DNA of 64,000 nucleotides from Microthyrium microscopicum. Lineage: Eukaryota. The stretch is taken from NCBI GenBank assembly GCA_010405405.1, contig MU004236.1, forward strand, positions 1,990,070 to 2,054,069. Direction: 5' to 3'. The position numbers and the translations under genes are program-made. Below the pieces are notes generated by a model. The model saw only the letters and a program-made list of their open reading frames with translations, ran no database searches and was not told the origin of the DNA. This document shows, in pieces, positions 29,701-61,095 of the stretch; the stretch's first letter is position 1, and each line of letters begins with the position of its first letter.

Positions 29701-30686
29701 AGCTATATAACTAAGTTATCTAGTATAATCTTTCTTATTAATAAATATTCTAAGTCTATACCTAATTTAATTAGGTAGTAAGAGTAATAGTAAAGGTTTA
29801 ATTACTTTTCTTTATAATAGAGGTATACTTCTACATCTTTTAGCTTATTACCTTTTTTATTAAGTATCTTTTATACTTAAGTAGCTTAAAAGATTAGAGA
29901 GTTTTTATTAATAGTTAAAGTAACTAGTTAATTAAGGTTTACTACTATAAAGTAGTAAGATATTAATATAGATAGTACTCTAAGGCCTTTAATTTACTAG
30001 CGTAGTTTTATTAGCTATTTATATATTCTAAGAAATAGTTTAGTATTATTATTAGGTTAAAAAGAAGCTAGTAACTAGTTATCTCCTATATTTATTTAGT
30101 TTAGTAAAGTTATTTAACTAGTATTTTAAGGGACGTCTTCTAACGCTTTAGTCTTTTTATCTTTATAGCTTTATTCTAATAAATAATTATCTTCTAACTT
30201 ATTTTTATCTTTTAATAACGCTCTTAAGTCTAGTTCTAGTAGTTTTAATAGTCCTAAGACGCTCTCTACTAAATCTACTACTTTCTAAGTAGTATTTAAT
30301 TATATTATATTCTAAGTATTAAGTCTACTTTAATACTTAGTATATATAGTAAAGAGGTAATATAATAAAGATAAATAACGTAAGTATATAAAAGATAGAG
30401 ATAGGTACTAATTATTAAGCTAAGTATAAGTAATTAAGGATAGTAAGTAAGCTATATAGCTATTAACTTAGGTTTATTAGTTAGAAGCTTTATTAACTAT
30501 AATTATAAATAATAAAAAAGGATACTAGAAGGGAATGCTTATTTATTTAGCGCGTTTTAATAGTAAGTATATTAAGTATAATTATAAATATTTAGTAGTA
30601 ATATAGAAGATAAACTTTAGTATTCTATAGAACTAAGAATAAGAGGTAATTAATGCTTAGATTATTAATAAGTTAAAGAGTATTAG

Positions 30687-30954
30687 TATTAGAAATGAGT
30701 CGTTCTAAGTAAGTAAAGACTATAATTATTATAGTTCTAGTAAATATATAAAAATAGAGACAAGAGTAATTACTAAGGAGTTACTTAAACCTTTATAATT
30801 CTTCTTCTTTATTACTTAGAGCTATAAGGACTCTACTAAGCTATCTATATTTATAATAAGTTATTATTAGTTAACCTAATTAATAATACTTTATTCTACG
30901 TAGATGTATCCTATTAGTAGTTATCTTAAACTAGAGGTGTCTTAGTTCTTAATA
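30687..30954 (-). repeat. 3' LTR of Gypsy B (268 bp)
   Basis: Colinear with 39198..39465 and differs from it mainly by transitions. TAT...ATA ends are RIP'd TGT...ACA. Confidence 0.92.
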
Positions 30955-33900: not shown

Positions 33901-36900
33901 ACTTAGTAGTTTTTTCTATATACTTATTATTTAATACTATTTTTAAGTTACTTTAAATTAATTTATTATAATATATATATAAGAAAGTTAATTTAGGTTC
34001 TAATTAGTAAAAAAATTATAAAGTAACTATTCTTTTTCTTTAAAAGCTTATCTTAAGTCTTTTAAGTCTTTTTTAGCCTTTTTAGCTATTTTTTTAGTCT
34101 TATAGAGTTAAAATCTATTAATCTATTTATAATATTATCTAGATATATTATTTTATATTTAACTACTCTTTTAATTATACTTATTATTAGTATAATATTC
34201 TTTTTAGCTAACTTTATATAATAGTACTTTAAAGTAGTTAAAAAAAGGTTAGCTATAAGCTCTTAGGTTAATTCTAACTCTAAGTAACCTTTCTATTTTA
34301 TAAAGTAGTAATATTTACTCCTTTTATTTACTATATACTTTATTACTCTCTCTATATTATATATATCTAAGTCTTCTAAGTTTAAAGAATTTTATAGTAA
34401 TATAAACTTTTATAAAAAGTAAAGGTTTAGTTTATATAGCTCTAATAGAGAGATATAGAATATATTATAAACTTATATATTCTTTAGAAAGTTAAGCTAA
34501 TAAGTATTAGCGTTTATAATCTTTATAATCTTAAAAGAGCTTATATACTTAATATTAAGCTTCTTCTTAATATAAGTAGTCTAAATATTCTTTATATTAA
34601 GTAAAACTTAGTTATTAATATTTAAATAAATATCTTTCTTTCCTTTATTATATTAGTTAGCTTAGTATAGCTATACTTTAGCTAATTTATTCTTTATTAT
34701 ACGCTATAAGGATAAAATATAGTTTACTATTTCTTTAGCGTTAGGTATAATATTTTTTAATAGTATTTTAGCTAATTTAGAAGTATAGGAGTTTCTTCTA
34801 GTATATATAATAAAAGGAATAACCTTAGTTAATAAGTAAATACTATTATTATAGTTAAACTTAGCTAAACTAAGCTATCTTACTTAATTATTCTATTCTT
34901 AATATTTATAAATCTATAAGTAGTGCTTAACCTCTTAGTTTAAGTACTCTATTTAACTATTAATCTATAGGTAGAATACTATTAAAAGCTTTCTAAGGAT
35001 AGAAAAGTAATAAAAGAATATTTTCTAGTACTTAAAAATAAAGAGAAGTTCTTAATTAAATATAATAATATAAAGTACGCTATATAGGTATATAATCTTT
35101 TATAAGAAAATCTTAGTAAAGTCTTTTATATCTATATTTTTTCTTATTAAGATATAGTAAGCTATTTTAGTTAGTTTATTAATAACTACTATAATAAAGT
35201 TATAAGTTTAATTATTATAGATACTTAGAGGTAAATTTATAATAAAATCTATAGTAATATTCTCTTATAGCGCTTTTAGGACTAATAAGGCTATTAGTAA
35301 TCTTTTCTAAGCTTATCTAATAGATTTATTATATTAGTAGTTAAGGCAAGCTTTATAATAGTTCTTAACGTCCTTTTAGACGTAGTCTTAAGTATAATAG
35401 CGCTTAATCTTCTTAAGTATCTTTTTTAATTCTTTATAACTACCTTCTATAGTATTATTATAGAACCTTTATAGAATTTTCTTTTTTTATAACTTTTTTT
35501 TAATAAAAATAAGATTTCTACTTATCTATTTAGCTTTATTTAAGTTATTTTTAGCTAGAGGGGGTTTATTAATAGCTAAAATCTTACTAGAGCTTATTTT
35601 TAGATACTTTTAGGTCTTAGTAGGCTTATCTTAACCTTTCTTAAGTTAGTTTATAGTAAGATACTATATATTAATACTAACATACGTAATAATAAAGTCT
35701 ATAAGTTTAATAGTATTAGTTTTAGCTATAAAAGCATTATTAAGCTATAACTTATTATAAAATAAGTTAAGTAATACTTCTATAGTCTTTTTCTATTCTT
35801 TTTAGCCTTTTTTAATATAGTCTAGACGTCTAGAGGATTTATTAACTAGATTTATCTTACTTAGGTAGTACTTAATATTAAAATTATATTCTAAAAGTAA
35901 ATTTACCTACTTTATATATATTAATAATATTTTTAGTATTATTTTAAGTAATTTAAAGTTTATATAGTTTATTAAGACCTAAAATTAGTCTAGTAAGCCT
36001 TATAAGTATTTTCTAAATACTTTTAAGGAATCTATAATTACTAAGAATTCTTATTATAAAGTCTTATAGTAGCTTTCTAGTAGAGATAATTTCTAAGAAT
36101 AAAATATAATAAGTTTTTATAGGCTATCTTAGTTTTTATTGCACTATTTCTAACTTAATATTTTATAAATTACTCTTTTAAAGATATTAGTTTCTAACTA
36201 TATAGGAAGTATAGGATTAAAATAGGCTAAAATTAGCATATTTATAAAAGAATTTTTTAGTTTATTAAAAGAATCTAAGGCGTCTAATAGTAATTTAATA
36301 TCTATAGACTCCTCTTATTATAGCTTTAGGCCTTTTAGAGCCTAACTTAGTTCTTTTTAGGTTAAGGCGTTTAGTAGTATAGTAATATAGGAGAATCTAA
36401 TAATAAACTAATAATAGTAGTTTATAAAGCTAATAAATTCCTTTACTTAATATACGTTATATAGTTTTAGCTAATCTAGGCATATATTAACTTATAATTA
36501 ATTTATAGTAATACTATCTAGAGTTATAATATAACCTAAATACTCTATATTACTAGTATAAAACTTATACTTAAATAGTTTTATATATAAATAGTACTCT
36601 ATAAGTTATTATAGAACTTCTTAGACGTTTTTAATATATTACTTCTTAATTTTAGAGTAAATAAGAATATTATTAAAGTAAATAATATATATTATATTTA
36701 CTAAGCCTTTTAATACTTAGTTAATATATACTTAGAAGGCTATAAAAGTATTTATAAGTTTAAATAAGACTACTATATACTTAAATATCTTATATTTAGT
36801 CCTAAACGTAGTTTTTTACTTATTACTATCTTTAATACGTAAATAGTAGTAAGCTTTATATAAGTTAAAGCTAATAAAGAACTTAACGCCTTAAAGTTTA

Positions 36901-39197
36901 TCTAAAAACTTTTTAATAAAAGGTAATATATATTAATCCTTAATAGTAATATTATTTAGGCTTTAGTAGTCTATATAAAGTTATAATATTCTATCTTTTT
37001 TTTTTATAAAGAGAATAGAGGCTTTAGTAAGAAATCTTAACTTTTAAATCTAACTTTTTATAAGGTAAGTATCTAAGTATTTATATAGAATAATTAACTT
37101 AGCTTTTAAGAGACTATAAATAGGTCTATATAGTACTATAGTGCCTAGCTTTAGATTAATCTTAAGGTTTTATAAACTATATTAGGCTAGTTTAAGTATA
37201 TCTTGCTTACTAAAGGCTTTAATAAATTATAAATACTTACTTAAGAGCTTTTTTATAAATAAATTTAGGTCTAGTAACTTAATTAGATAATTAAATAGTT
37301 AGAATAAACTATCTTAAGCTAACTTAGAAAACTTATTAGTATTTACTATCTCTATTTTGCTATAAAAGCTACTAAAAAGTTACTTCTATATAAGAGTCTT
37401 ATTCTTAAAGTCTAGAAAAGAATTCTATTTCTCTAACTAGAGTATTCTTATAATAATAGAGTAATATAGAGAGTTTATAATATAAAATAACCTTATTCTA
37501 GTCTTAGAGAGGCTATTTAAGTTAACTACTATTATTATAGCTTTTATAACTTTATAAATTTATATAGAAATATTATCTAGATATATTATAAGTATTTTAG
37601 AAAGAAGAGTAATATAGAGCTAAAGTTTTTTAGCTAGCTTAACGTCTATAATATTAAAGTATAATTTATAATTAACTATAATATTTAGAGATAAGGCCTC
37701 TTAGCTCTTATTATTTCTTAGACTCCTTTATAAGTATATTTACTTTAACTTTAGTCTTATAAAGTCTACTTTACTAGGTAAGTTATTATTCTTAACCTTT
37801 AATGTCTTTAGGACGTATATAATAATAGTTTTATAAAGCTATTTAGTACTAGGCTAGGCTATTTTATTAATAAGAGAAGCTACTAAGTTCTAGTTTATAA
37901 CTTTATAGCTTTATTTTTTCTTTATAGCTTAAAATATTCTATTTTAAAGTAGAGTTTACTATATTTAAAGTATTTAATCTTTTTTAGGTTAGACTTTAGT
38001 AGAATATCTATATTCTAAGTTATTTTAAATATAGCCTATTTTACTTTACTATTCTTTAAAGAATAGAAGGACTTTCTAAGTATTCTTAGCTCTTTTAAGC
38101 TCTTCTTATACTTATACTTATTTTTTAAGAAATATAAGTATTATTTTAAGAAAAGTTATCTTAAGTTTATTTTTTTAGAAGTAGAATAAGCCTTAGCCTC
38201 TATAGAACTAAGAGTCTAGTATAAATTAGCCTTTTTAAGGGCTTTTTTAACTATAGTAATAGTAAACTTCTTATTAAAAAGAATCTTCTTCTATATATTC
38301 TTAAGAAGGCTTCTATAGAACTAAAAGAGGTAACTCTTCTAGTTATTATATCTCTATTTCTTCTATAACTTAAGGAGATTATTATAGAGCTTCTAAGAGT
38401 AGTATTAACCTAATTTAATTATTTAAGACTTCTTAAAAGTAATATATTCTTACTTTATAAGGTAGCCTAAATAGCTTAGTGTATAGTCTTAGACTATTTA
38501 CTATATTTTTTAAAATTTTAGGTTTTAAGACTCTTTATAGAAAATAAAATTATCTAATCTTATTTATAATAGCTCTTTTTTAAGCTAATTATATTTATAA
38601 ATATACTAATAAAGTTACTAGTTATAAGTATTCTTCTAATAAAAAGGTTTAATAAACTTTTATTTAATATTATTAATTTAGAATATATATTCCTAAAGAC
38701 TTTTTTCTTTATAAGACTCTATTTTAAGTCTATCTTAATTTAAAGGTCTTAAGAAGGTAAGAGCTTAGCTTAAAAGATACTAATTAAGTCTTATTATATT
38801 AACTTAGCTAAAGTTCTTTAATTCTTAGGTAGTTTTAAGCTTACTAGACTAAATTACCTTAGCTTTTACTATTAGCTCTTATACCTTAAGCTTTAGCTTC
38901 TTTTTATTAATAAGTATATTAAGTTTCTCTTTATAGTATATTATAAAGTTATTTTAGGTCTTTCTAGGCCTAAGTAAGTTAGAGTTAGCTATTTTAATAT
39001 TAGATAGGTTTAATAAACTTCTAAATATATTAGTTTAGAGTAGAATAGGTATTAGTAACCCTTAGCCTAATAGTTAAAGCTATTTAAGTTCTATCTAGGC
39101 GCTAAGGTCTAAATATTTACTATTAGATATAGTTTCTAATTAGATAAGAGATAAAAATAATTTCTTTAAGTATTTAAGGATTAAGAAGTAATTACTA

Positions 39198-39465
39198 TAT
39201 TAGAAATAAGTTATTCTAAGTAGGTAAAGACTATAATTATTATAATTCTAGTAGATATATAAAAATAGGAATAAGAGTAATTACTAGGAAGTTACTTAGA
39301 CTCTTATAATCTCTCTTCTTTATTACTTAGAGCTATAAGGACTCTACTAAGCTATCTATGTTTATAATAGGTCATTATTAGTTAACCTAACTAATAACGC
39401 TTTATCCTACGTAGATATGTCCTATTAGTAGTTATCTTAAACTAGAGGTGTCCTAGTTTCTAATA
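39198..39465 (-). repeat. 5' LTR of Gypsy B (268 bp)
   Basis: Direct repeat of 30687..30954, followed by the TSD ATTAG. Confidence 0.92.
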
Positions 39466-39773: not shown

Positions 39774-40270
39774 AGTTATATTTAACTTATTATAAAGATA
39801 TCGGATGCGTATAAGATAACTACGTACTTTATTAAAAATATTTTAAAAGTATTTAAAATATTTTAAACTTATTAGGTACATCGTAGTTATTTTAAACTTA
39901 TTATAAAAACATTAGATGCATATAAGATAATATATACTTTATTAGAAATATTATAAAACTATTTAAAATATTTTAAACTTATTAGGTACATTATAGTTAT
40001 TTAAAACTTATTATANNNNNNNNNNTATTAGGTACATTATAGTTATTTAAAACTTGTTATAAAAATATTAGATACGTATAAGATAATATATACTTTATTA
40101 GAAATATTATAAAACTATTTGAAATATTTTAAACTTATTAGGTATATTATAGTTATTTTAAACTTATTATAAAGACATTAAATGCGTATAAGATATTATA
40201 TACTTTATTAGAAATATTATAAAACTATTTAAAATATTTTAAACTTATTAGGTATATCGTAGTTATTTAA
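39774..40270. repeat. 110-bp tandem satellite, at least 4 copies, spanning a 10-N assembly gap (40016..40025)
   Basis: Anchor 'attaggta' at 39871 and 39981, and after the gap at 40027, 40137 and 40247 (period 110). Confidence 0.9.
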
Positions 40271-41182
40271 GTATAGCTTATACTATACTTAAGTAAATTT
40301 ATTATAGCTAGAGCTACGTATAATAGAATATAAATAATGCTTACTAGTAACTTTCTATATATCTAGATATATCTAGACATGTTTAGATATGTCTAGATAT
40401 TAGTATCTAGATATGTCTAGCACTTAGATAAAGTAGTTACGATCTTTAGGTAGAAGATGTAATTTTTAGGAAAAGGGATTAAAGATTACTATATAACTAG
40501 CTACTAAGGCGTAATAGCCTTTTCTAATTAGTTAAGATATTGCTATTTTTATATCTTACGCTTTAAGTAAGCTATGCATCGCCTTTATAGTCTATCCTTC
40601 TTAAACGTTCTAATTAGCCTTTAATATTATTATTCTAGTCCTAACGGGTTATAAGCAGGATATACGACTAGGCTTTTATCTCTTAGACCTAATAGAAAGA
40701 TATATCTCTTATATTCATTATAGCCAACTAAGGAGGTATTTAAGGACTTAGTAGTTACTACTATAAGTAGTTACTAAGGAGTAATAACCTTTTCTTTCTA
40801 GTTAAGATAGCGCTATTCCTATATTTTACGCCCTATTAAGCAAGCTATGTATTACCTTTATAGTCGAATTGAGTAATTACGTTAATAAATGCGTCTATAC
40901 TCCTAACTAGTTAAAGAAATAGCTAAAGATTATCTTAAGCTCTATTTACGGGTAGGTAGATTAGATGCTTAGAGTAATAATAGTTGTTTAGGGGTCGTTA
41001 CTACGTATAGGAACGTCGCTTACTAGTAACCTCTATTATATCTAAATATATTTAGTACTTAGATAAAGTAGTAACGATATTAAGAGCAGGTAAGGCAAGG
41101 TAAGGTAATAGTACCTTTAGCAGTATATTAGTTAACTATAATAATAAGAGTAATAGTAAGTAGTATATAAATTAAGCTAAGT

Positions 41183-41400
41183 CTATGCATAATGCTTCTT
41201 ATTGTCGCAAAGCGCCACTATATCCGCTTTTATCCCACTAGTTTTTAGGACGTAGACCATAATAGTAACTGTCGCCCTAGCACCGTTGTTAATCGTGGTA
41301 TTACTAATGCTCGTACCTAGGACTTCTATCTCTAACTCTATTCTACGCTTTAAGGCACTACTTATCCTATATACTATATAATCCTCTATAATAAGGTCCT
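41183..41400 (+). pseudogene. Argonaute PIWI-domain fragment (QDE-2-like), RIP-mutated
   Basis: Direct translation LCIMLLIVAKRHYIRFYPTSF*DVDHNSNCRPSTVVNRGITNART*DFYL*LYSTL*GTTYPIYYIILYNKV matches the Ago consensus PRITLIIVGKRHHTRFYP..D..GN..PGTVVDRG.T....WDFFLQ.H..LQGTARP.HY.VL.DE. Confidence 0.92.
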
Positions 41401-41543
41401 ATATGCTCACTATATTAAGGGTAAGATATTACTCCTATTAAGCTATAAGTAGCCTAATTATTATTTTAATCGTATAGTGCTACTTATCTCTTTACGTAAC
41501 TAGCAAAGTTAGAGATTTATCTACTATTCCTAGTCTAATAGAG

Positions 41544-42962
41544 ATTAATGTTAAAGACTAATTATAGTATATTAAAGAAGTCTTTCCTACCCTATGCTAC
41601 TCAAAAAGTATTATTAACTTCTTTCTTTCTTGAATTATCTTTCCTATAGGAATAAGAGAGTTTCCTTTGAAAATTTCTATATTTAGTACTATTATATAGC
41701 TATTAAACTAGGTAAGAATACTTAAGCGATACGATAGAGGAAAAACTACCTTAAGCTCTATTTATAGGTAGGTAGATTAGATGCTTAAAGTAATAACTAG
41801 CGTCTATAGTAGTAAATCTATTTAGCGTATCTAATTGCGTCTATAGTATACTCTGAAAATTCTATACGAAGCCTTACAACCTTTAATACTATATATTATC
41901 TAAGGGTCGTTACTACGTATAGGAACGTTACTTACTAGTAACCTTTATTGTATCTAAACATGTCTAATACCTAGATAAAGTAGTAATAATATTAAGAGTA
42001 GGTAAGGTAATAGTACCTTTAGCGGTGTATTAGTTGACTATAATAATAAGAGTAATAATAAGTAGTATATAAATTAAGCTAGAAGTAGTCTAGTTATCGT
42101 TTTAATCATATAGTGTTACTTACTCCTTTACGTAATTAGTAAAGTTAGAGATTTATTTACTATTCCTAATCTAATAGAGATTAATATTAAAAACTAGTTA
42201 TAGTATACTAAAGAAGTCTTTCCTACCTTACGCTACTTAAAGGGCGCTATTAACTTCTTTCTTTCTTAAATTATCTTTCCCGTAGGAATAAGAGAGTTTC
42301 TTTCGAAAATTTCTATATCTAGTACTATTATATAGCCGTTAAACTAGGTAAGAATACTTAAGTAATATGATAGAGAAAGAACTACCTTAAGCTTTATCTA
42401 TAGGTAAGTAAATTAGATACTTAGAGTAATAACTAGCGCCTATAGTAGTAAATCTATTTAGCGTATCTAATTACGCCTATAGTATACTCTAAAAATTCTA
42501 TACGAAGCCTTACGACCCTTAATACTATATATCGTCTAAGGGTCGTTACTACGTATAAAAACGTTGCTTACTAGCAACCTCTATTATATTTAGATATATC
42601 TAGCACCTAGATAAAGTAGTAACGATATTAAGAACAGGCAAGGCAATAGCACCTTTAGTAGTATATTAGTTAACTATAATAATAAAAGTAATAGTAAGTA
42701 GTATATAAATTAAGCTAGAAATAGCCTAGTTGTTATTTTAATCGTATAGTGCTACTTACCCTTTTATATAATTAGTAGAGTTAGAGATTCATCTACTATT
42801 CTTAATCTAATAGAGATTAATATTAAAAACTAGTTATAGTATACTAAAGAAGTTTTTCCTACCCTACGCTACTTAAAGGGCGTTATTAATTTCTTTCTTT
42901 CTTAAATTATCTTTCCTATAGGAATAAGAGAGTTTTCTTCAAAAATTTCTATATTTAGTACT
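41544..42962 (+). pseudogene. Three copies (starting 41544, 42180, 42816; ~145 bp each) of a fragment of a DUF3638/DUF3645-family large fungal protein
   Basis: Consensus of the copies reads INVKD.LQ.TEEVFP.LRYSKGAINFFLSRIIFPVG.REFP.KIS.SS, matching the family motif as I recall it: GINLKD..QC...VFP.LRY.K..IDYFL..IVFPKEMKEFP.KLSASG. Confidence 0.7.
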
Positions 42963-45900
42963 ATTATACGGTCCGTTAAGCTAGACTTAAGGGGCTTCTA
43001 GTAGCGTTCCTAACTTTAGCAGTTTATATACGTATTAGATTTAAAGTCTAAAGAATTCACTAAGTAGAATATATTTCTAACACGATCCTACTTAACGACA
43101 AGAAGAAATATTTAACATACTATAAGCCTCTATAAATGCCTTTAATAAGCCGTTAAACTAGGTAAGGATGCTTAAGTAATGTAGTAAAAAAAGAACTACC
43201 TTAAGCTCTATCTACGGATAGGTAGATTAAATACTTAGAGTAATAATAGTTATCTAGAGGTCATTACTACATATAAGAACGTCGTTTACTAGCAACCTCT
43301 ATTATATCTAGACATATCTAGCACCTAGATAAAATAGTAATAATATTAAGAGTAGGTAAGGTAACAGCATCTTTAGCAGTATATTAGTTAATTATAATAA
43401 TAAGAGTAATAATAAATAGTATATAAATTAAGCTAAAAGCAGCCTAGTTGTTATTTTAATCGTATAATACTACTTACTTCTTTGCGTAACTAGCAGAGTT
43501 AGAGATTTATCTACTATTCCTAGTTTAATAGAGGTACTATTATATAGCCGTTAAACTAGGTAAGGATACTTAAGCAATATAGTAGAGGTATTAAGCAAAT
43601 AAATGTTTCCTTAGTCGTTTTAGTAGCGTCCTATACGAGCTCTTCTTCTAAGACAACGAAAGGGGTTCCCTTATAATAAATATAGTTAAAGAACGCTGTG
43701 CAAAGCTAGGGTCGTATTTAAGAACTTAGTAGTTACTAAAGTAGTTATTAAGGAGTAATAATCTTTCCTTCCTAGTTAAGATAGCGCTATTCCTATATCT
43801 TACGCCCTACTAAGTGAGCAGTGTATTGCCTTTATAGTCAAATTAAGCGATTATGTTAATGAATGCGTCTATACTCCTAACTAGTTAAAGAAATAGCTAA
43901 GGACTACCTTAAGCTCTGTCTGTAGGTAGGTAGATTAAATGCTTAGAGTAATAATAGTCGTCTAGGGGTCGTTACTACGTATAGGAACGTTGCTTACTAG
44001 TAACCTTTATTATATTTAGATATATCTAGCACCTAAATAAAGTAGTAACGATGTTGAGAGTAGGCAAGGCAATAGTACCTTTAGCGGTATATTAGTTAAT
44101 TATAATAATAAGAGTAATAGTAAATAGTATATAAATTAAGCTAAAAGTAGCCTAATTATCATTTTAATTATATAGTACTACTTGCCCCTTTACGCAACTA
44201 GCGGAGTTAGAGATTTATCTACTATTCCTAGTCTAATGGAGGTACTATTACACAGCTATCAAACTAAATAAGGATACTTAAGCAATGCGGTAGAGGCATT
44301 AAGTAGGCAAATGTTTCCTTAGTCGTTTTAGTAGCGTCCTGTACGAGCTCTTCTTCTAAGATAACGAAAAGGGTTCCCTTATAATAGATATAGTCAAAGA
44401 ATACTGTACAAAGCTAAGGTCGTATTTAAGGACTTAGTAGTTACTAAAGTAGTTACTAAGAAGTAATAACCTTTCCTTCCTAGTTAAGATAGCGCTATTC
44501 CTATATTTTACGCCTTACTAAGCGAGCAGTACATCGCCTTTATAGTTGAATTAAGCGATTACGTTAATAAATACGTCTATACTTCTAACTAGTTAAAGAA
44601 GTAGCTAAGGACTACTTTAAGCTCTATCTATAGGTAGGTAGATTAGATACTTAGAGTAATAACAATCGTCTAAGAGTCGTTACTACGTATAAGAACGTCG
44701 CTTACTAGCAACCTCTATTATATCTAGATATATCTAACACCTAGATAAAGTAGTAACGATATTAAGAGCAGGTAAGGTAATAGTACCTTTAGTAGTATAT
44801 TAGTTAACTATAATAATAAGAGTAATAGTAAATAGACTAGATTTTTTTAAATGTTTCCTTAGATATTTTAGTAGCGTCCTATATAGGCTCTTCTTCTAGG
44901 ATAAAAAAAGGGGTTCCCTTATAATAGACGTAGTTAAAGAACGCCATGCAAAGCTAGGGTTAAGGGTTTAGCATCTTTATAATTCTCGTATTAGTAAGGA
45001 CTTAGCAATCTAATAAACATTATTGAGAAAAGTAGCTATCCTTAAGTTAATAAGAGCATACTAATTATTAAGGTAGGAAAGCCTATATCGTAATAATAGG
45101 TGTTTTCCTAATCTAAGGCTAATAAATAAATTAAGTAATAGAGAAGCTTCTATAAAGAAGAGTAGAACATCTAATAATATTAGAGTTATTAACCTACTAA
45201 CGTACTAAAAATAGTTTAATTATAGTACTATAAGAGATTCTTATAAGCTAGGTACTAGTTTTAGTAATAAAGTAATTAAAGAATTTTAAGACTTTAAAGC
45301 GTCTATTAGTAAGTAATGCTTCTAGAATATATATTAGCTAATTACTAACAAATTTCGTATACCTATAGGTTATACCTTCTAAGTTAAGAACTATAAAAAT
45401 TAGTTTATTAACTAAAGTAGTTAAAGAGTCTATATATTCTATACTCTTTACTACTAAATCTATCTCTTATTAACTTTGCTTTCCTTTTAAGTATTTAGCG
45501 TACGCTTTTATAAAGTTAAAGTACGAAACTAAGTAATCGCGTTAATAAATACGTCTATACTCCTAACTTATTAAAGAAGTAGCTAAGGATTACCTTAACT
45601 TCGTTTATAAGTAAGTAGATTAGATGCTTAGAGTAATTATTTATAGTGACGATAATTGCGTTTGCCTTAACTTTAATATAATTAAGATTATTCAAACACT
45701 AGACTTATTTTTAGTATCGTTGCCTAAAGCTTTAGCGACGAGATTATAGCCTTTAAATATTCCTATAGTAAGTATAATAGTTAGTACTTTAAAAGTTTAG
45801 GTAAGTAATGGCGAAGGACGACTTAGTAATTAGACGGCTTCCTAACGTCCTTAGCCTAACTAGCTTTTATAAGCGTGTAAAGAAATTATAGCTATTAAGT

Positions 45901-46015
45901 ATACTCTTAAGAATGAGAAAACAAGCTCCTACTAAAATATCTAAGCTCTTATTATAGATACGGCAAAGCTAAGATAGCTAATTATTAATAGATTACTAAA
46001 TAAGGATAATAATCT

Positions 46016-46737
46016 ATAGATAGTAGGTAGTTGTAGCTTATGCTAAATACGGAAACTTTATATTAGTTCCCTAAGTATAGGATTAGGATTAGGTAGTAAC
46101 TTCTTATTAAAGAAGCAGTTATTATTAACGTTAGCTAAGCTATATATACCCTTCGCTCGTATAACTACCTAGCTAGCTTTATTCTTTCGCTCTTTTAGAT
46201 AGGTTAGTTTTATGTAAATACGAAATAAGAACTAAGCTAATCCGTATATATTAACAGTACCGTAATTACCTTAATAGGATATTATAAGCTTAGGTAATAG
46301 CCTATTAGGGTAGAAAGCTGCTCTACTAACGTTAATATTAACTAATATATAGGAAATCGTAAGTTAAGTACTAGTATAGATAGTAAGTAGTTGTAGCTTA
46401 TACTAAATATAGAAACTTTACGTTAGTTCCCTAAGTATAAGATTAGGATTAGGTAATAACTTCTTATTAGAGGAGTAGCTATTATTAATGTTAGCTAAGC
46501 TATATATACCCTTTACTTATATAACTATCTAGCTAATTTTATTCTTTCGCTTTTTTAGATAGGTTAGTTTTACGCGAATATGAAATAAGAACTAAGCTAA
46601 TCTATATATATTAATAATACTATAATTACCCTAATAGGATATTATGAGCTTAAGTAGTAGCCTACTAAGATAGAAAGCTACCTTACTAACGTTAATATTA
46701 ACTAATATATAGGAAATTATAAGTTAAGTACTAGTGT
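46016..46737. repeat. 360-bp tandem duplication (2 copies) containing Argonaute L1-PAZ sequence
   Basis: 46021 'tagtaggtagttgtagctta' and 46381 'tagtaagtagttgtagctta' are colinear for 360 bp. Confidence 0.92.
46118..46375 (-). pseudogene. Argonaute L1/PAZ fragment, duplicated copy
   Basis: LVNINVSRAAFYPNRLLPKLIISY..YGLA*FLFRIYIKLTYLKERKNKAS*VVIRAKGIYSLANVN corresponds to ILVNVNVS.AAFY..GPL..LM..L..FL.R.RV..THLKE.KNKAG....R.K.I.GLA..ND. Confidence 0.85.
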
Positions 46738-46950
46738 AGTATCCTTAGAGAGCTAATAAGCTGCTATTAAGATAAAGCTATTATAGATTAGCTCTAATAA
46801 ATGGAAAGACTTTTCGTAGTCTAATTGTAGCTACGTTTGTATTAGATTAGTAAAAGTGGTTAAAGAATATATTAAGAGATTAAAAAAGGGTTAGCTAATT
46901 ATTATAGCTAGCGTTAGATGCTATCTTAATTAATATAAACTAAATAGCTA
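46478..46950 (-). pseudogene. Argonaute N/L1/PAZ fragment (~470 bp), RIP-mutated
   Basis: F*SLNIFFNHF..NVATIRLRKVFP..LNSSLLAL*GYYTST*LIISYILVNINVS corresponds to QALNIF.NH..ATIG..K.FP..LGGGL.ALRGY..S.RLAT.RILVNVNVS, and continues into the PAZ start. Confidence 0.88.
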
Positions 46951-48208
46951 CTAAGATATTTATTATAGGGAGTAGTAACTAAAGGTAATTTCTTAGCTCT
47001 TTATAACTTTACTATAATTTGCTAGCCTAATAAAGAATTCTTCTAAGATGAGCTATTTACTTTTCTTTTATAATATAATATAGAGTTAGTTAAATACTTT
47101 ACTTAGTTTACCTAGAAGAGATTATCTTATTAGTAAGTGCTTTCTAGTATTAAGAATCTATATTCTTAATTACTCTACTAAGTTAACTATAATCTAGGAA
47201 TAGTAAACTTACTTAATTAACTTCTAATCTAGGAAGGTATACTTAAAATGCCTCTTTCTATCTATTAGTAATAAATATATTACTAAATTATTTAATATCT
47301 ATAACTTTAATAGTATAAAAGTTATATAGCTATGCTAAATATCTATATATATATTATCTATATGCTATATATAACTAAAACTACTTATTAAGTATATATA
47401 GGTAAAAAATAGTACCTACTTATATAAAACTATATAGTTATTTCTATATCTTAATAAATATAAGCCTATAGAAAGCGGTCTTACTATATATAATAGTATA
47501 ATATTAATTAAATAGTAAATAGGATAGAGCTTTATAACTTTTTTATGCTCTTATAGTAAATAGGTATATAAATATATATAGTCTATTGCTAATTTAAAAA
47601 GATAAGAGTTACTTAGAACTTTATTTATTATGTTTATTATAAAGAAAGAGACTATAAAGTAAGTATACGTTTTACGTAATTAATTTAAAGAAACTAAGTA
47701 AGTATAGAAAATAGAGTAAAGAAGAGAAATAAGCTACCTACGCTTAGCTATTAATTTTTCTTATCTTCTATATAAAGAATGTCTATAATATAAAAAAATA
47801 GAGTTTCTTTTACTTTATATATAAGGTTTAAAGTCTTAAGTAGCTATAAGGAAATATACTTTTTTAAGTATAGTAGTGCTTTAGTATTGCGCTATATAAA
47901 AGCTATTAAAATAACTTTAATAAGCGCTTTCCTTATACTTAAGCTAAGTAGAAAGTAGAATAAAAAGAGAAAGAGGAGGTTAAATTAAGTTAAAGCTAAA
48001 GAAAAGATTTAGGAAGAGTACTATCTTAACTAAGAAGGAAAGGTTATTATGCCTTAGTAATTGCTTTAGTAACTACTAAATCTTTAGATATTTACTATTC
48101 TAATATAGTTAAAAATAATTTTTGCTTAGGGTTTATCTCCTTATTACTTTAACTTCTATATTCTTTAACTTAATAAGCCCTTTATGTCTTATTGTAGTAA
48201 TTATAGTA

Positions 48209-48785
48209 GCTATAGAGGTAAATTTTATGGTGGTTAAGGTGGAGGTAGGTTTAATAGAGAAGGAGGTGGTGGCTATAAAGGCGAATTCTATAGCGGTTAA
48301 GGCAGAGGTAGGTTTAATAGAGAAAGAGGTAGTAGCCATAGAGGTAAATTCTATAGTAGTTAAGGTGGAGGTAGGTTTAATAGAGAAGGAGGCAGTGGCT
48401 ATAGAGGCAAATTTTATGTTAATTGATGTGGAAATAGGTTTAATAGAGAAGGAGATAGTGGTCGTTATTATTATTAATTATACTTCTTCTAGTATCTGCT
48501 TAATAGCTTTAATAATAGCCTAGTTATATCTTTTATTTCTATCTTTTTTCTTCTTACTACTTCTAAACTCTAATATAACTCTACTACTTTACTTATAAAG
48601 CTAACTAAAATATTAGAGGTCTTAGGATATATAGAATATATAGTAGAGGCGAATTCTATAGTAGTTAAAGTGATAATAGAGAAGGAGGTAGTAGTAGTAA
48701 AGGTAAGTTCTATAGTAGTTAAGGTAGAGATATAGAAGGGCTAAGGTAGTAGCTATAGAGGTAACTTTTATAGTAGTAAAAGTAG
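48209..48785 (+). repeat. 63-bp tandem repeat (4 full copies plus later partial copies); RIP relic of an RGG/Gly-rich coding repeat
   Basis: Units start at 48209, 48272, 48335 and 48398. Reversing RIP gives GGC CGT GGA GGC GAA TTC CGT GGC GGT CGA GGC GGA GGT GGG TTT GAT GGA GAA GGA GGT GGT = GRGGEFRGGRGGGGFDGEGGG. Confidence 0.75.
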
Positions 48786-49713
48786 AGTAGTATATTAAGT
48801 ATTATTATAATATCTCTAACTTTTCCTTATATAAAGTAGACCTTATAGAGAATAAAGGATGCTAAGTAGTAAATACTTAAAGTACTTTTTTAGACGTTCC
48901 TAGACTTCTAAGGTGCTTTAAAAGCGCAAGTAAGGAAAGGTAATGTAGCTATATATAGTAGTAATAGCCTCTAGATATAGTGTTTTTTAGGGAAGCTAAG
49001 TAGTAGTAGCTTTCCTTTATAATAATATATATTAAGTTAAAAGTATTACTTCTATGCTAGATATAGTTCCTATGCTAATAAAGAAGTTTAGTAGTTTAAT
49101 ATTATTATAATTACTATCTTAGATAGGTTGGTTAGAATATAGGTAGTAAAGCTAGTTAAAGTTAGTTGTAAAGCCTTACTTAAGTATTTTAAAGAGTAAT
49201 AGTGTTGTTATTAACTTTATAAACTCTAACTTCATGTTTTGGTAGTATAGGTTTATTATAGGATAATATAAGCTAAATAAATAAGGTAAGCGCGTAATTG
49301 CTTTAGTTAAGGGCACTCTTTAGTGGTATATTAATTGTCTATAATAATAAGAGTAATAGTAAAGGACTAGTTTTTAGGCAGTAGGCTTAAGATGAGGGCA
49401 ATCTGTTTAGAAATAACTAAGACTAATAAGTGCGTAAATAATAGCGTAAGTAATGATAAATATTAAGGTAAAGTATAATAAGCGTTAAGTTAATCTCTAT
49501 CGCTATTAAGAATGGTTACGTATTTAAAATCCTCTTTAATATTCTGCTTAATAGTTTAAAAATAGTAGTCCTATTACTAGATACATAATTACCTACTTTA
49601 AGAACCTTATTTAGTATTTATAATTTTTTATAATATATATATCCTATTAGCGTATAACTAAAGTCTTAACCCTTATAATAAATAGCGAGCTACTCTTATA
49701 TAAATATTAAGAG

Positions 49714-49998
49714 GTAATAGTTACCTTTATAGCTAGCATCTTAGAGGCTAGTAAAATAGAAACTATAAGGGCATTTAGCTATAATAATAAGTGTTATACA
49801 TAGAAGGCTTATAGTAGTATTATTAATAGGATAGAGCCCTTTGTATAGTTTGTGGAGTTAAGGAAGTTTGGTATTAAGGGCTATTTCGTATTATTCTTCT
49901 AATATACTATCCTAGTAGGTAATAACGTTAGTAAGGTATCTTTTATGCTTAGAATACTAAAGTATAAGATATTGCTTAGATAGAGTAGTTAGCCTAGT
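49714..49998 (-). pseudogene. Argonaute PIWI fragment including the YRDGVSE catalytic-motif region, RIP-mutated
   Basis: LIL*YSKHKRYLTNVITY*DSILEE*YEIALNTKLP*LHKLYKGLYP..SLLCITLIIIAK corresponds to L.LW..KH..YP.N.I.YRDGVSE.QY..L..ELP.LRK.C..LYP..LPRITLIIV.KR. Confidence 0.88.
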
Positions 49999-50448
49999 TT
50001 TAATTTTATCCTTAACTTTAGAAATTGCTTTAGTAATATAGGTTCGTAATGAGAGTAACTACGTAGTAAGTATAAGATAAAGTAGATATAAGATAATAGT
50101 CGTTTATATACTAATCTATTTTATAAGTAAATATAGGTTTATATATACTTAAAAGTCTAAGAATGTCTATAAAGACTTAATTTAAACTACTAAAGCTGAC
50201 TTTAGTATGTTCTATAGTATAATAAGCTATAGTATAAATATATAACGTTCTGTAAATTAGATTTATAAAGTACATAGTAGTAGTGCTTATTATAATACTG
50301 CTAAGCTCCTAAATAATAGATAAAGATATTAGAGTAGTGACTTTAGAGTAAAATTCTGTTATTTATATAAATTACTATTATTACTAATAAGTCTTTTGCT
50401 TTTTATTTAATATGCCGTTTCTCTTCTATAAGATCTTATTAGAGAAAA

Positions 50449-50850: not shown

Positions 50851-53748
50851 AGGAAATTAAGAAAGTTAGGAAGAGGGTCTAGCTTTAGCGCTTTAGCGCT
50901 CTAATATAGTATTAATAGACGTAAGCTAGAGTATATTAAATAAGGTATTAATAAGTCTAAAAATCTTAATAACCTTCTGCTTTAGTATATAGTTTAGCTT
51001 AATTTTAGTTGTAGGTTTATTACGTATTATAGCTACTATAAATAGCTACTTATTTAATTCGAATAATAGTAATAAGTGCCTAAATATAATATAGGATATA
51101 ATAGCTATAGGTATAAGTAAGAAGGAGTATAGTAAAGTATAAGGAACGTATTAAGAATATTAGCAGAAGATAAGGCGTATAAGAGTTAAGTTTAGTTTAA
51201 TGATAGTAATATTTTAGTAAGTTTTAGTTTAGTCGCGACTTTAGAGATATTCAGCCCTAAACCTATTAATAGTACTATTTAATATTCCTTTTTATTTAGC
51301 TGCTAAAAGCTTTTATAACATTATTATTAAGCTACTAAAGAATAATAACTTCTAAATCTTCTAAAAAAGCTCTTCTTATTAGCTACTAAAAACGAAAACT
51401 ATTTCTCTCTACGTTACTATTAATAAAAAGTCGTAATTAAGCTTATTACGTTAGTTTTATTACTTAAAGAATTAAACGCTTTTTAGTTAGTAACTATTAA
51501 GTTTACTACTAAGAACTAGCTTTATTATAATAAATTAGGCTACGAAAAATTCCTTACTTTATTTATAGCTTTAGGTCTTAATATTATAACGTGCAATAAA
51601 TGTTTCTATTAGATATATATTTAGTATAAGAAAGCTAAACATACTAGGTAAGGTGTTTAGTTATTATATCTTTTTAATAATATAATATAGAAAGATACTT
51701 AAACTTCTAAAATCTCCCATTCTTATTAATAGCTCCTATATCTTATTTTAGGATTACTCTAAATAATAGACACTATCTCTTTAACACGTGCTAAGATATT
51801 ACGATTCTAGACTAATAAGATATAATAACTATCTTAAAGATAAGGCTTTATAAGCTATACTTACACTAGCTACAGAGATAAATTAGTAGCATTGCAACGC
51901 TTATAAATTAATAATTAAACTAGATACTAGCTACTACTATATATAGTAAGCTATGCTTTTTAAGTTTTTGTCTTATATTAATATATTAAAAAATTAGTTA
52001 CAAATATAGTTAATTAGTTCTACTATATTTATAGCGTTAAGTAGAAGAAGTATTACTATCTATAGTAGAATAAGAATTAATTAGTTGCTAAAGCTAACGT
52101 AATTATTAATTAAGAGCTAGCTAGAAGATGACGAGTAGTACTAGTAGAGTAGGTTTAACGTATAAAAGAGGTAAGATAGGAGCTAATTAACTAATATTAA
52201 TATACTTATTTGCGATGACTTAAGAAGATTAGGCGTTAACGTCTAGAATGCACTATGCTAAAAAAAACCTAGCTTTATACCTACTAGGACGCGAAGAATA
52301 GATTTAAAAGCTCTAACTATAAAGTCTTACTTACTTAAAAATAGAGAAATTAAAGATACTTTAATAGGACTATGAATTCTATTAGGCTTATATTGAACTC
52401 TTACCCCTACTTTCCTTAAATAGTGTATTATCTATACCTATATCTCGTCCTTTCTCCCTATCTATTTAAAAAGAGATACTTTATATCTTTATATAATAAC
52501 TATCTCCTTATTACAAGCTTTACTGTTTATGGCTAAGAAGAGAAGATTTTTGCTATACTCTAACTAGACTATAATATAGTATACGTTATATAGATAGCTA
52601 TAGATTTAGCGCCCTATAAATATCTTAATATATATTAAAATACTACGCCTATATTTTCTCTTTCGTTATTAGTACTAGTATTAATAGCCTAACCGCTTTT
52701 AGAAAGACGCTAAGGCTCTACTTAAGAATCTAGTTTTTGCGTATTTATATAGTAACGACTTACTTATCTACTTCTAGGACTGTATCTTACTAAAGAGAGT
52801 CTAGTAATATAGTGTTTATAAGTTAGCTAATAGTCTGTTTAGTAGAATTAAGGTTTTACTAATAAGTAGTATAAGAGTCTAGGTAAACTTTATACTTAAG
52901 TTCAGTTTAATTAGTTTCTAAGGGAGATTCTGTGTCTAAGTCTAGGGCATTATTATTGTTCTCTTCTAGCTTAGGAATTAATTTAGCTAGCATAATAGCT
53001 TTAAGGAGTTAAGGAGTAGTTTAAGATTCTAGATATTCGTAATTTATATTTTTTAGATAGGAGCGTGCTTTAAATAAGGGTACTAAGAGAATTAAGTATA
53101 GTTTTTAGTTATCTTAAAGACTATAATATATAGTTTATAGTAGAATTAAATAAAAGATGCAATAGTATTATGATAAGTAGTAGTAAAGCTATTAATTAAC
53201 TAAGCAAGTTATTATGAATAAAGAAGGTTATTAGAAACTAAGATAATAAAGATATATAACGAAGGTAAATAGCTACTATTTTAATTATTACTATAAATAG
53301 TAGATAATTATTAGGTAACGTTTAGGTCTAGTAATTAGATAAGCTCTTTTTAAAAGCTTAAGGTAAAGTATAGAAAAGATATATATATTAGAAGTAAGAT
53401 AAAGAAGTAAAATAAGTTTAGATTACTATAAATACTAAAGAAAAAAGATTTAAAATTAATAACCTATTATTTTATTTGAAGAATTATGAATTAAAAGCTA
53501 TTAAAAAGAATGAATAATTTTACCTCTTATATATATACTATTCTACGTAAATATATATTCCTAAAGTTCTTAAGTTAATTTATTCTATCGTATTTTATAT
53601 TATACTAACTATTATATTTAAGTCTATAACTAATACTAACGAAACTAAATTACTTAAGAAATAATATTATAATAATAATAATAATACTTAGTAATCTATA
53701 AAATATACGACTCTTAGGTAATAAAACGTTTATTAGACCTTTATTTTA

Positions 53749-56700
53749 CTATATATCTTCGTTATTATTGCTATTATTTTCTTTGCTATTATTGCTAGTT
53801 TCTTCTTTGCTATTTTTGCTAGTCTCCTACTTACCTTCTCTACTACTATCTAGTTTATCTTCTCTATTTTTTACTTCTTTTCTATTACTACGTTTTATTC
53901 TCTTTGCCCTATTAGTAAGCTTCTTAAAATAAACTTTAATCTAGGCTTTATAAAGCTCTCTATTCTTTCTTTCTAGGGCCTTATGTCTTGTTATAGTTTT
54001 AGCCTTAGCTACCTTAATTCCTTATTTACTAAAGATAATTAGGTTATATATTCTAGTATAATTATTATAATTAGAGTATAAATTTAACTAATAATAATTA
54101 AGATACTTTAAGTCTCTATAAGAAACTATATATATAATAATTAATAGTTTGTTTAGTTTATATATTTTCAACTTTATAACTAGCTTAAATAATATAAGAC
54201 CTAATAGCCTATTAAACGTAAGTTTTATAGCTTTTCCTAAAATTAGTATATACTCTTAAACTAAAGCTATAAGAAATCTAGCGTATTTATGTTATAATTT
54301 AAAATCTCTTATTATTTAATTTATATTATATACTATATAAATAATAAGTAGTTATATAGGAAGTTAACCTAAAAGACTAAAATTATTATTAAGCTTTTTC
54401 TTAGATATGGGATAGGCTTAAGCCTATATAAAGTTACGTCGCTAGTAATTCTTAGTTAAGACTTTACTATACTATTAATTATTATCCTTACCTTTCTACT
54501 ATTCCTATTTATAGTAGGCTATAAAGGGTTACGTATTGTTCTTATTATTATCTATTACGTAGGTTATGCTACTATATAATATTATAATAAGGTAACTTAG
54601 CTAGAGAGCGTTAGGATATAATACTTTACTAGAGTATATAAAGTCTAGTCTGTCGTTAATAAAATCTTTATTTAAATATATTTCTTTACTCTATATATAT
54701 AATAGTATTAGCTTTAGAAAAGACTAGTGCTTCTTAAGGTCTTCTTTGTAGCAATTAATTAACTAGCTATATAAATAACTCTTAAGGTTGTTAAGCTTAG
54801 CCTATTTGCTAACATTCCTAGTAAAAAGTATACTAGATTTATAAATACCCTTATTATATAGCTCGTCTATATAATATAATTAGAGTTATAAACTATATTT
54901 AGGTATACTTAATAAAATAATTATAAGATAAGTTCTTTTAGATATAATCTTCTTCTTAGTAATATTATAGACTTAATAGTTATAGTTATTATTATTATTC
55001 TAGATTATATTCTTAATATGATTAGTAAGATAGTAGATTATTTAAACGTGCTAACTAAGTTAAAAGTTAGTCTATTTTGTTGCTAATATAGTATACTCCT
55101 AATATAACTTTTTTATAATATTAGAACTAGTTCTATCTATAGTGCTAAATATATGAATAGATAGTGCAAAGTAGATTAGGTTATAAAACTTAGGGAAATT
55201 AAGCCCTTTAAACCTAGCTTAAGAAGTCTTATATTTATATATTACTATTTTAGTGTATTCTATAATTTATAAATAGACTTATATATATTTAAGTATATTC
55301 TTATTATGTAACTTATAGCTAGAAAGTATAATAATATTTATTAAAGCTTTAATAAATTTTATTATAATTAGGTCCTTTGGGTTTAAAAGTAGAGCTAAGG
55401 TAGCTATAAGTTACTTTGAAAGTATTTATAATTCTAAGCTAGTCTTTTATTAAACGTTATAGTAGCCTTAGGCTATTCTTAGAAAGCCTAGATAAATAGG
55501 ACACTATAGAAACCTATAATTAATTATAGACTTTATTTTTACGCTAAATATAAACTTCTTTTTTTTCCTCTTCTATTTAGTCTTTAGTATATTGCTATTC
55601 TTCCTTTTAGTCTTTAGCGTCTTATAAGTATAAATTTTTTATATAGCTCTATTATTCTTTATTTTAGCTATTAGTACTATAGATATTACTAGTACTCTCT
55701 TTTCTAAAATAATTTAGGCTGTCTAGTCTATTGCTTACTTAACTAGTCTATTTAAAAAGAATATATATAGTAAATTAAAAGTAATTACTATGTGAATATT
55801 TAATAAAGAATAATTCTAAGTAAAATTATAAATTTTATAAACATAGTCTTTGCCTTTAGTATTATTAGTAGTAGTAAGCTACTTAGTATACTCTCTTTTT
55901 TAATTAGTGTAGCGAAGTACTTCCTACTTTAATATATTCTTTTACGAAGTTATATAAGTCTGATAGGCCTATTTGCTAGTAAGGTCTTACTAATATAATT
56001 ATAGTACTAAGTAAATAGGATAGTAATGTTTAGACTAGATACTTGTAATTATAATAAGCTCTTTATAATCCGTACTTACGTAAGTAAGAATTAGAAGATA
56101 TCTTTAAAACTAGCTATTAGTAGTTACTATAACGTAATTACTCTTAGGGACTATTCTAAATTCTATATTTTATTAGTAAATAGCTTTATAATACTTAAAC
56201 GCGTAGTATTAAACTTTTAAATATAATATCTATAGCGTTATAAAATATTTTAAGTTTGTTATTAACGTTTATACCTTTTAACCTAAGGAATACTATAATA
56301 GAAAGAAATCCTAGTCTTTCTATAGCTCTTCTAATACTTCCTAATAGATTAAAAATAGTTATATAGTAAGCCTATATATAGTTGTTACTATGTTATTTAG
56401 ATATTGTAGTCTTATCTAACCCCTAGTAAATAAGGATAAGCATAATACCTAAATTAACCTTATCTTATAATTCTTACTATCTTTCTACTAATTAAGTATT
56501 AGTATAGATATGCTTACTATCTTTATCCTTTTATATTATAGGCTTAAAGTAGAGGTCTTTAGTAAAAGGCTTATAGAAGATAAAGAATTTAATAACCTCT
56601 AAGATACTCTAAAAGTATACTTTGACTTTACTACCTAAAAGATTTTTAATACTTTTTATTTTATTATATAATAGCCTCTTAAGTATTACTTTCTACTAAT

Positions 56701-60536: not shown

Positions 60537-60640
60537 TTAGCTATATTTAATTACTAACCCTATTTATTATTAGCTACTTTTAATTACTAACTCTATTCGT
60601 TATTAGCTACTTTTAATTACTAACCCTATTCGCTATTAGC
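60537..60640. repeat. 33-bp tandem repeat x3 within the helicase gene
   Basis: 'ttagctacttttaattactaaccctattcgtta' three times; length is a multiple of 3. Confidence 0.75.
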
Positions 60641-60689
60641 TTTAGTAACCTTTAGCTTAGTCTATTAATCCTAAGCTTAAGACTCTGTG

Positions 60690-61095
60690 GAGGGGGAGGT
60701 GCTATTATTAGTAGAATAGAGGGGCGCTGCTGTAGTAGTATTTAGGGATTCTATATTAACGTTGTCTTAGACGGAGGGGGAGGAAGGACGAAAGGTATTG
60801 TTATTAGTAGAATAGAGAGGCGCCGCTGTAGTAGTATCTAGGGATTCTATATTAATGTTATCTTAAATAGAGGGGGAGGAAGGATAAGAAGTATTATCGT
60901 TATTAAGATAGAGGGGCGCCGCTATAGTAGTATCTAGGAATTCTATATTAACGTTGTCTTAGATGGAGGGGCGGGGAGGCTAAGAGGTGCTATTATTAGT
61001 AGAATAGAGGGGCGCTGCTATAGTAGTATCTAGAGATTCTATATTAATATTGTCTTGGACGGAGGGGAAGGGAGAACGAGAAATACTATTATTAT
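60690..61095 (-). repeat. 96-bp (32-codon) Pro/Thr/Asp-rich tandem repeat x4 within the helicase gene
   Basis: Anchor 'ggcgc' at 60723, 60819, 60915 and 61011. Minus-strand unit reads approximately PPPSVQDNVN.ESLDTTTAAPL.STNNSTFRP. Confidence 0.85.

Follow-up and report, generated by a model that had tools for sequence, protein, structure and literature searches.

The 64,000 nucleotides (nt) of contig MU004236.1 of the fungus Microthyrium microscopicum that we analysed here, hereafter the window, contain between 40.5 and 51.0 kb at least seven broken and heavily mutated pieces of an Argonaute (Ago) gene, together with short amplified bits of it; they occupy both strands and do not follow the order of the gene. 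[quoted passage not shown]

The reference for this analysis was P0001 (KAF2670412.1; 1037 amino acids (aa)), a predicted 'Piwi-domain-containing protein' of M. microscopicum that is encoded on a different contig from the window and has the ArgoN, ArgoL1, PAZ, ArgoL2, ArgoMid and Piwi domains, all present and in this order. The window was searched with P0001 by tblastn and by an ungapped RIP-aware scan, in which an identical residue scores +5, a residue restored by undoing C>T or G>A changes scores +3 and any other residue -5; the RGG region was masked and the reversed protein, which reached a maximum of 43, served as the control. This stricter scoring replaced a BLOSUM-scored version of the same scan, which was swamped by the low complexity of the RGG region (control 154). 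For the Pfam searches short tiles were used instead of long six-frame translations (3.7 thousand aa), which proved insensitive and recovered ArgoL1 alone at 22 bits. The results of tblastn and of the RIP-aware scan are concordant, and over the whole window the latter gives no above-control Ago signal outside the pieces named below. At random offsets 76-80% of the codons need a transversion to fit P0001, as against 0-12.5% in the pieces, which excludes chance as the cause of these matches.

The highest-scoring piece, A, lies on the minus strand at 46924-46439 (46375-46924 with its tail) and corresponds to aa 249-410 of P0001, i.e. from the end of ArgoN through L1 to the start of the PAZ region (tblastn E 4e-44; RIP-aware score 658); Pfam recovers ArgoL1 (PF08699) in two stretches of the minus-strand frame from 46999, at E 1.6e-7 and 31.2 bits (cut-off 22). 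Piece B is a partial tandem copy of A on the same strand at 46378-46079 (46015-46379 with a 64-nt tail), which spans aa 311-410, comprising part of L1 and the start of PAZ (E 2e-30; score 410). Piece C, on the plus strand at 41183-41446, corresponds to the C-terminal part of Piwi (aa 867-954; RIP-aware score 360) and interrupts one unit of the tandem array described below; its match to Pfam Piwi (PF02171; E 4.1e-9, 36.6 bits, cut-off 28.9) covers profile positions 178-255 of 302 and aa 19-98 of the plus-strand frame starting at 41102. Piece D (minus strand, 49977-49771 and 49761-49711) covers aa 809-898 of Piwi, including the YRDGVSEGQ motif, and has a 3-nt deletion (tblastn E 4e-18; RIP-aware scores 231 and 53); a weak extension of it may reach 50037. 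Two further minus-strand pieces are shorter: E, at 40715-40550, represents aa 590-642 of the MID domain with small insertions or deletions and one frameshift, and F, at 51006-50914, represents aa 150-181 of ArgoN, again with one frameshift. E was found by tblastn as well as by the RIP-aware scan (scores 97 and 40 against the control maximum of 43), and its gapped alignment scores 108 where the control scores 19; F reaches only E 0.13 by tblastn alone, while its RIP-aware scores are 56 and 48 and 29 of its 32 codons fit without need of a transversion. Finally, piece N (plus strand, 48184-48787) contains the start methionine and the RGG-rich aa 1 to ~70 (tblastn E 6e-6), and none of 25 codons in it needs a transversion, compared to 79% at random offsets. 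Within it, at 48203-48787, the 63-nt unit encoding this RGG-rich start is present in about four good tandem copies and in more diverged ones; it appears to have been amplified relative to the N-terminus of P0001, and this amplification preceded RIP.

Four of these pieces had been proposed in an initial annotation of the locus, and all of them were recovered at about the same positions by Pfam (Piwi and ArgoL1), tblastn and the RIP-aware scan, along with at least three more. With regard to the domains, both the Piwi and the ArgoL1 matches anticipated there are present, while the piece with the YRDGVSE motif is recognized by tblastn and the RIP-aware scan and not by Pfam: none of the six translations of 49600-50100 matched any Pfam profile at E<=10. 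The same annotation had described an out-of-order, two-stranded mosaic that never forms a whole gene, with a duplicate of the N/L1/PAZ piece. This description holds: every piece contains stop codons, no continuous frame with ordered domains can be traced through pieces that are scrambled and lie on both strands, and the duplicate is a tandem copy with a period of 360 bp. The RIP-aware scan of the window did not find aa 70-150, 181-249, 410-590, 642-809 and 954-1037 of P0001.

Smaller traces of the same gene are distributed in the tandem array. A short Ago bit (aa 626-637) occurs at 40873-40838, 43847-43812 and 44555-44520, scoring 30-34 each time, which is singly below threshold; the three bits occupy homologous positions of the tandem repeat units. 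By repeat alignment, units of the 708-bp type contain this bit together with an 88-nt tail at 40734-40873, 43714-43847 and 44422-44555, with the Ago sense on the minus strand. The same 88-nt stretch follows aa 642 in piece E as well as in the array units, and an inverted copy of it lies on the plus strand at 48004-48093, 92 nt upstream of the methionine of piece N (81-84% complementary; 92.6-96.6% in an alphabet in which C is merged with T and G with A). This tail has no significant fit to P0001, its score not rising above the control, and a partial match to aa 643-654 seen by eye was not relied upon; it may represent an intron or Ago coding sequence that has diverged, or be of another origin. 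To the right of the mosaic, RGG-like matches at 53.4-54.0 kb and 60.3-60.6 kb were rejected as Ago, being at the same level as the reversed-protein control. A low-complexity stretch on the minus strand at 53400-53970 scores 165-166 to aa 3-198 of P0001 where the control scores 154, and was not accepted. Another stretch, on the plus strand at 60500-61100, is a ~120-nt tandem repeat with a glycine/arginine-rich translation (e.g. GGGGRTKG...RIEGRR), for which a relationship to the Ago N-terminus is indistinguishable from low complexity.

The source of the pieces can be named with some precision. When the Piwi piece was compared by phmmer to 1.84 billion representative proteins, 1379 were recovered at E<=0.001, and P0001 was the top match (E 1.1e-24, 103 bits, 60% identity over residues 869-954), followed by a runner-up at 69.7 bits and 43%. 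For each of pieces A, C, D, E and F the score on P0001 exceeds by far those on the remaining 149 Ago representatives (e.g. 658 versus 77). Moreover, the codons that either encode the P0001 residue or are restored to it by undoing C>T or G>A changes alone amount to 160 of 162 in A, 98 of 100 in B and 87 of 88 in C. Given the 98-99% of identical or RIP-revertible codons in A, B and C and the wide margin by which P0001 is the best match of the pieces tested, we infer that the pieces derive from the fungus's own Ago gene lineage, the working copy of which is unlinked and predicted to be intact. That a host silencing gene was the source had been surmised at the outset, and P0001 is the gene in question. 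The older pieces defined below (D, E and F) might have come from a lost close paralogue; a search for longer homologous proteins with piece D returned nothing at E<=0.001, and no closer paralogue was found as their source.

The mosaic lies within DNA with a composition very different from that of the genic part of the window. The latter occupies 1-21 kb with a GC (guanine plus cytosine) content of ~0.47-0.50, while the AT-rich (adenine plus thymine) part extends from 21 to 64 kb with a GC content of 0.19-0.32; the Ago pieces themselves are at 0.22-0.37, as against 0.47-0.49 for intact open reading frames (ORFs). Across 22-64 kb TpA/ApT is 1.6-1.9 and (CpA+TpG)/(ApC+GpT) is 0.01-0.33, compared to 0.5-0.8 and 1.2-1.4, respectively, in the genic 1-20 kb. 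The customary thresholds for RIP are values above 0.89 for the first index and below 1.03 for the second. The base composition of 22-64 kb hence fits the expected outcome of RIP, and the two indices bear out the earlier view that the surroundings are RIP-affected. In composition, in these indices and in the presence of degraded Gypsy and DNA-transposon relics, the region resembles the RIP-degraded repeat blocks (AT isochores) of Dothideomycetes; it differs from them in that a 10.5-kb part of it consists of fragments of a single-copy host gene without transposon sequence.

A second line of evidence comes from the tandem copies, which the region contains at periods of 63, 110/156, 270, 298, 360, 636 and 708 bp. 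The largest set is an array at 40726-44962 with 636-bp and 708-bp units of untraced source, the copies of which reach 99.8-100% identity after C is merged with T and G with A, as seen in the pairs 43191-44127 versus 43899-44835 (937 nt) and 41437-42349 versus 42073-42986 (914 nt). Likewise, B and the corresponding 365 nt of A (46375-46739) are 100% identical in the merged alphabet. In real letters 44 of these 365 sites differ, and 112 of 937 between two array units: every one of these differences (44/44 and 112/112) is a transition. As all the differences between tandem copies are of this kind, duplication came first and was followed by RIP-type mutation only.

The local structure is also seen outside the assembly. 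Unitigs of three public DNA runs, all from one sample which is probably the assembly's own, cover all 30 bins of 39.5-52 kb, and 382-nt unitigs from two of the runs span 41153-41534 with 0 differences, bridging both junctions of piece C; hence, the structure cannot be put down to this assembly alone. How many copies the arrays contain is uncertain, on account of two features. One is a run of 10 N at 40016-40025, inside a 110/156-bp tandem repeat (39774-40271) ~450 bp to the left of the first Ago block; the other is a short public-run contig in which 42176 leads back to 41685, with 2 additional letters, such that the 636-bp array may depart from the assembled one in copy number or arrangement.

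The pieces were not all made at the same time. C and D share aa 867-898 on opposite strands, 8.3 kb apart and with different end points, and the 98 columns of their overlap have an identity of only 65%, the differences being made up of 24 transitions, 5 transversions and 5 gap columns; the B/A tandem pair, by comparison, has 0 transversions in 365 columns. A similar disparity is seen against the donor protein: 3 of 250 codons require a transversion in A and C together, as against 11 of 169 in D, E and F (Fisher p = 0.004). The simplest reading of these small numbers is that there are two age classes, an older one with D, E and F and a younger one with A/B, C and perhaps N. The two classes and the transversions between the overlapping C and D point to more than one duplication event, in line with the repeated acquisition originally suggested. 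It is against these data that a single event has to be weighed, in which one duplicated Ago pseudogene was later shattered and rearranged in place. Such an origin would account for one gene being behind all the pieces within a span of 10.5 kb, and the heavy tandem duplication indicates that the region rearranges readily; yet it leaves unexplained why the same residues are present twice with different ends, 5 transversions and 5 gap columns when the recent copies show none, and why the transversion load differs between the classes. We therefore regard it as improbable.

The graveyard reading can be formulated as follows. At least two waves of copying brought segments of Ago into this repeat-rich region, whether by repair-mediated ectopic insertion or by a mobile element, and the copies, which lie on both strands, were then amplified locally in tandem at periods of 63, 270, 360, 636 and 708 bp; local rearrangement and inversion would have given rise to the scrambled order. 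From the established biology of RIP, each duplication would have made the copies substrates for it in later sexual cycles; C>T and G>A changes by now affect about a fifth of the bases, have introduced stop codons throughout and account for all the differences between tandem copies. The relics would no longer be coding, and are likely to be too diverged to pair with the donor or to give rise to matching small RNAs, leaving heterochromatic debris. The donor gene itself presumably survived because RIP-damaged copies of it would be selected against.

Several observations weigh against this reading. About four fifths of the 10.5-kb span are matched to no source, and the intactness of the donor is that of a predicted protein. 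The base following the surviving C at the 233 still-differing sites is T in 75, A in 70, G in 65 and C in 23, which is not the classical CpA preference of RIP; CpA is nearly exhausted in the region, and this may explain the missing preference. Two waves within 10 kb are unexpected under random ectopic insertion and hint at a carrier element or a preferred site. Lastly, a direct repeat of 10-11 bp, ATTAAGCTA(RR), stands at either end of the 255-bp insert of piece C, at 41171-41181 and 41437-41447, and is present once only in each of four sister units; the pair could be the target-site duplication of a mobile insertion and not a repair microhomology.

The last two points bring in neutral transduplication, i.e. 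the repeated capture of Ago fragments by a DNA transposon (Pack-type, CACTA/Plavaka, hAT or Helitron-like), again followed by RIP, for which the two age classes at one locus and a transposase relic close by would also speak; in excerpts of the account of other Dothideomycetes, the capture and amplification of a host gene by a hAT element and RIP of all copies save the original are documented (PMC6710886). At the junctions of C the evidence is equivocal. Ago coding sequence begins with the first base of the insert and runs to its end, so that terminal repeats would have no space in it, no terminal inverted repeats were found at piece C, and the right-hand copy of the direct repeat itself reads as Ago aa 952-954. 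Microhomology-mediated joining is thus as good an account of these junctions, and so is a deletion in the ancestral sister unit. A search for flanking repeats at the other blocks (A/B, D, F and N) gave only matches at the chance level for a two-letter alphabet, and one exact 13-mer. This 13-nt direct repeat, TAGCTAATTATTA, at 45975-45987 and 46892-46904, could be the sign of another junction; of its two copies, one is situated immediately beyond the lower end of B and the other inside aa 255-259 of A, an arrangement that cannot be interpreted.

The wider transposon context was examined with a Pfam scan of 900-nt tiles in six frames (E<=0.1), comprising 84 translations for 39.6-52.2 kb, 78 for 52.2-63.9 kb and 60 for 30.6-39.6 kb. 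The only domains matched by the 84 translations of 39.6-52.2 kb are Piwi and ArgoL1, and none belongs to a transposase, a reverse transcriptase or a helicase; this absence from within the mosaic is weak evidence because RIP lowers the sensitivity of such scans. A hint of an AAA_12 helicase of a Helitron was rejected, as it remained at 13 bits even in finer tiles where the cut-off is 27. To the left, a RIP-degraded Ty3/Gypsy long terminal repeat (LTR) retrotransposon occupies the minus strand at 30686-39465 and ends ~1 kb from the mosaic, outside of it. Its RVT_1 (32.4 bits), RT_RNaseH_2 (42 bits) and SH3_Tf2-1 (34.6 bits) domains are above cut-off and Integrase_H2C2 is just below; it is bounded by an LTR-like direct pair of 269 nt (30686-30954 and 39197-39465) with an identity of 88.8%, its differences comprising 30 transitions and 0 transversions, a pattern to be expected for LTRs. 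About 5 kb to the right of the mosaic, the minus strand at 56207-56641 contains the relic of a Plavaka (CACTA/KDZ-type) transposase (PF18759; E 1.5e-10; 39.7 bits, 41.3 in finer tiles, cut-off 26.3; profile positions 39-196 of 325), which is the sole solid match in the tile scan of 52.2-63.9 kb and whose element ends were not found. The matches among the mosaic's own array units aside, the LTR-like pair is the only long dispersed repeat in the 64 kb, and no second copy of any Ago block exists within the window except the local tandem ones. The mosaic is thus situated between two transposon relics, and no feature places it inside either. The label 'TE-borne' (borne by a transposable element) given to the locus at first accordingly finds no footing in the 84 translations, with the nearest such relics lying outside. 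On balance, transduplication is rather unlikely, and the graveyard reading retains our preference.

That reading has further to be set against a more active role. It was proposed initially that the locus may be an 'anti-RNAi decoy', directed against RNA interference (RNAi), and in this type of counter-defence the fragments would supply small RNAs against the functional Ago, or provoke RIP or meiotic silencing of it, and thereby weaken the silencing of a mobile element. The idea draws on the nature of the target, a core silencing gene, on the presence of fragments in both orientations, and on the nearby relic of the CACTA superfamily, and excerpts on rice offer a precedent for it (PMC3459959); in addition, pieces of 264-486 bp would when fresh have been long enough as RIP substrates. 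The present state of the pieces points the other way. Non-synonymous RIP changes alone alter 13-22% of their bases, so that divergence from the donor coding sequence is at least of this order, and no more than 8 consecutive codons are unchanged; as estimated from the protein, their identity to the donor is probably below ~80%. As a result, 21-25-mers matching the Ago mRNA would be rare at best. The only inverted Ago overlap, between C and D, has a longest exact run of 6 nt at its 65% identity, and the other inverted pair, of 88 nt and 82% identity, has arms 3.5-7 kb apart: no usable hairpin or foldback was found among the Ago pieces in the window. Neither does the donor appear to have suffered, as its protein is predicted intact with all domains and the 350 codons of the younger pieces contain no difference in the direction expected had the donor taken non-synonymous RIP changes; no link to a live element was found either. 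The decoy reading is unsupported by these sequences, and counter-defence appears to us highly improbable. A transient variant, in which a mobile or recombination-prone element copied Ago pieces into one heterochromatic locus at least twice and the fresh copies for a time exposed the functional Ago to RIP, quelling or meiotic silencing, with only the scars remaining, would still be quite improbable.

The genic part of the window contains, on the minus strand at 13993-18495, a 1501-codon ORF for a pentatricopeptide-repeat protein gene that is 99% identical over 96% of its length to BT63DRAFT_285592, a hypothetical protein of M. microscopicum, and, on the plus strand at 9012-13683, a large multi-exon series of ORFs with more than 1500 codons. 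With the ORF at 10001-12421 of this series, a search within one band of protein lengths returned no relative; the full protein probably falls outside that band.

The locus is a further case of a known type, namely host-gene duplicates inactivated by RIP. Going by excerpts of the published accounts, the nearest documented case is that of the histone H3 gene, which a hAT element captured in Pseudocercospora fijiensis and relatives; hundreds of copies were inactivated by RIP there and the original remained intact (PMC6710886, Dhillon et al. 2019). In both instances a Dothideomycete host gene was copied into AT-rich blocks and its copies were destroyed by RIP while the original stayed intact, presumably under purifying selection; they differ in that a complete hAT carrier and hundreds of copies are described in P. 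fijiensis, while the fragments reported here are partial and scrambled, come from a silencing gene and have no carrier that we could find. The excerpts on Zymoseptoria tritici describe a methyltransferase, dim2, that was duplicated and of which both the copies and the original were inactivated by RIP, with loss of cytosine methylation (PMC8016269; PMC6710886). There too a genome-defence gene was itself duplicated and its copies hit; the difference lies in the original, which is inactivated in Z. tritici and predicted intact in M. microscopicum. For counter-defence, the nearest precedent is miR820 of rice, which is located within CACTA transposons and targets OsDRM2 (Nosaka et al. 2012, PMC3459959). 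As far as the excerpted text goes, the likeness consists in a sequence related to a host silencing gene residing in repeat DNA, in our case with a CACTA-type transposase relic nearby; unlike the fragments described here, which form no hairpin and have RIP-degraded complementarity, miR820 is a processed hairpin that pairs and co-evolves with its target. Among titles and the opening parts of abstracts, no paper on Ago relics or RIP in M. microscopicum was found.

If the blocks were to prove element-carried, or if the marks of RIP on the donor were to coincide with the intervals that were copied, the locus would provide evidence that transposons and the silencing machinery are in conflict in fungi; and if the attack on this machinery had been recurrent and transient, it would be a fungal counterpart of the action of rice CACTA miR820 on OsDRM2. 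As it stands it is a well-characterised relic, which shows that a core RNA-silencing gene can, like dim2 of Zymoseptoria, itself be copied into repeat DNA and undergo RIP, in this case more than once and with the working copy kept. It thereby offers a concrete and datable instance of the danger in which genome defence places its own genes, and it can serve to examine how an essential single-copy gene avoids RIP once it has been copied in part.

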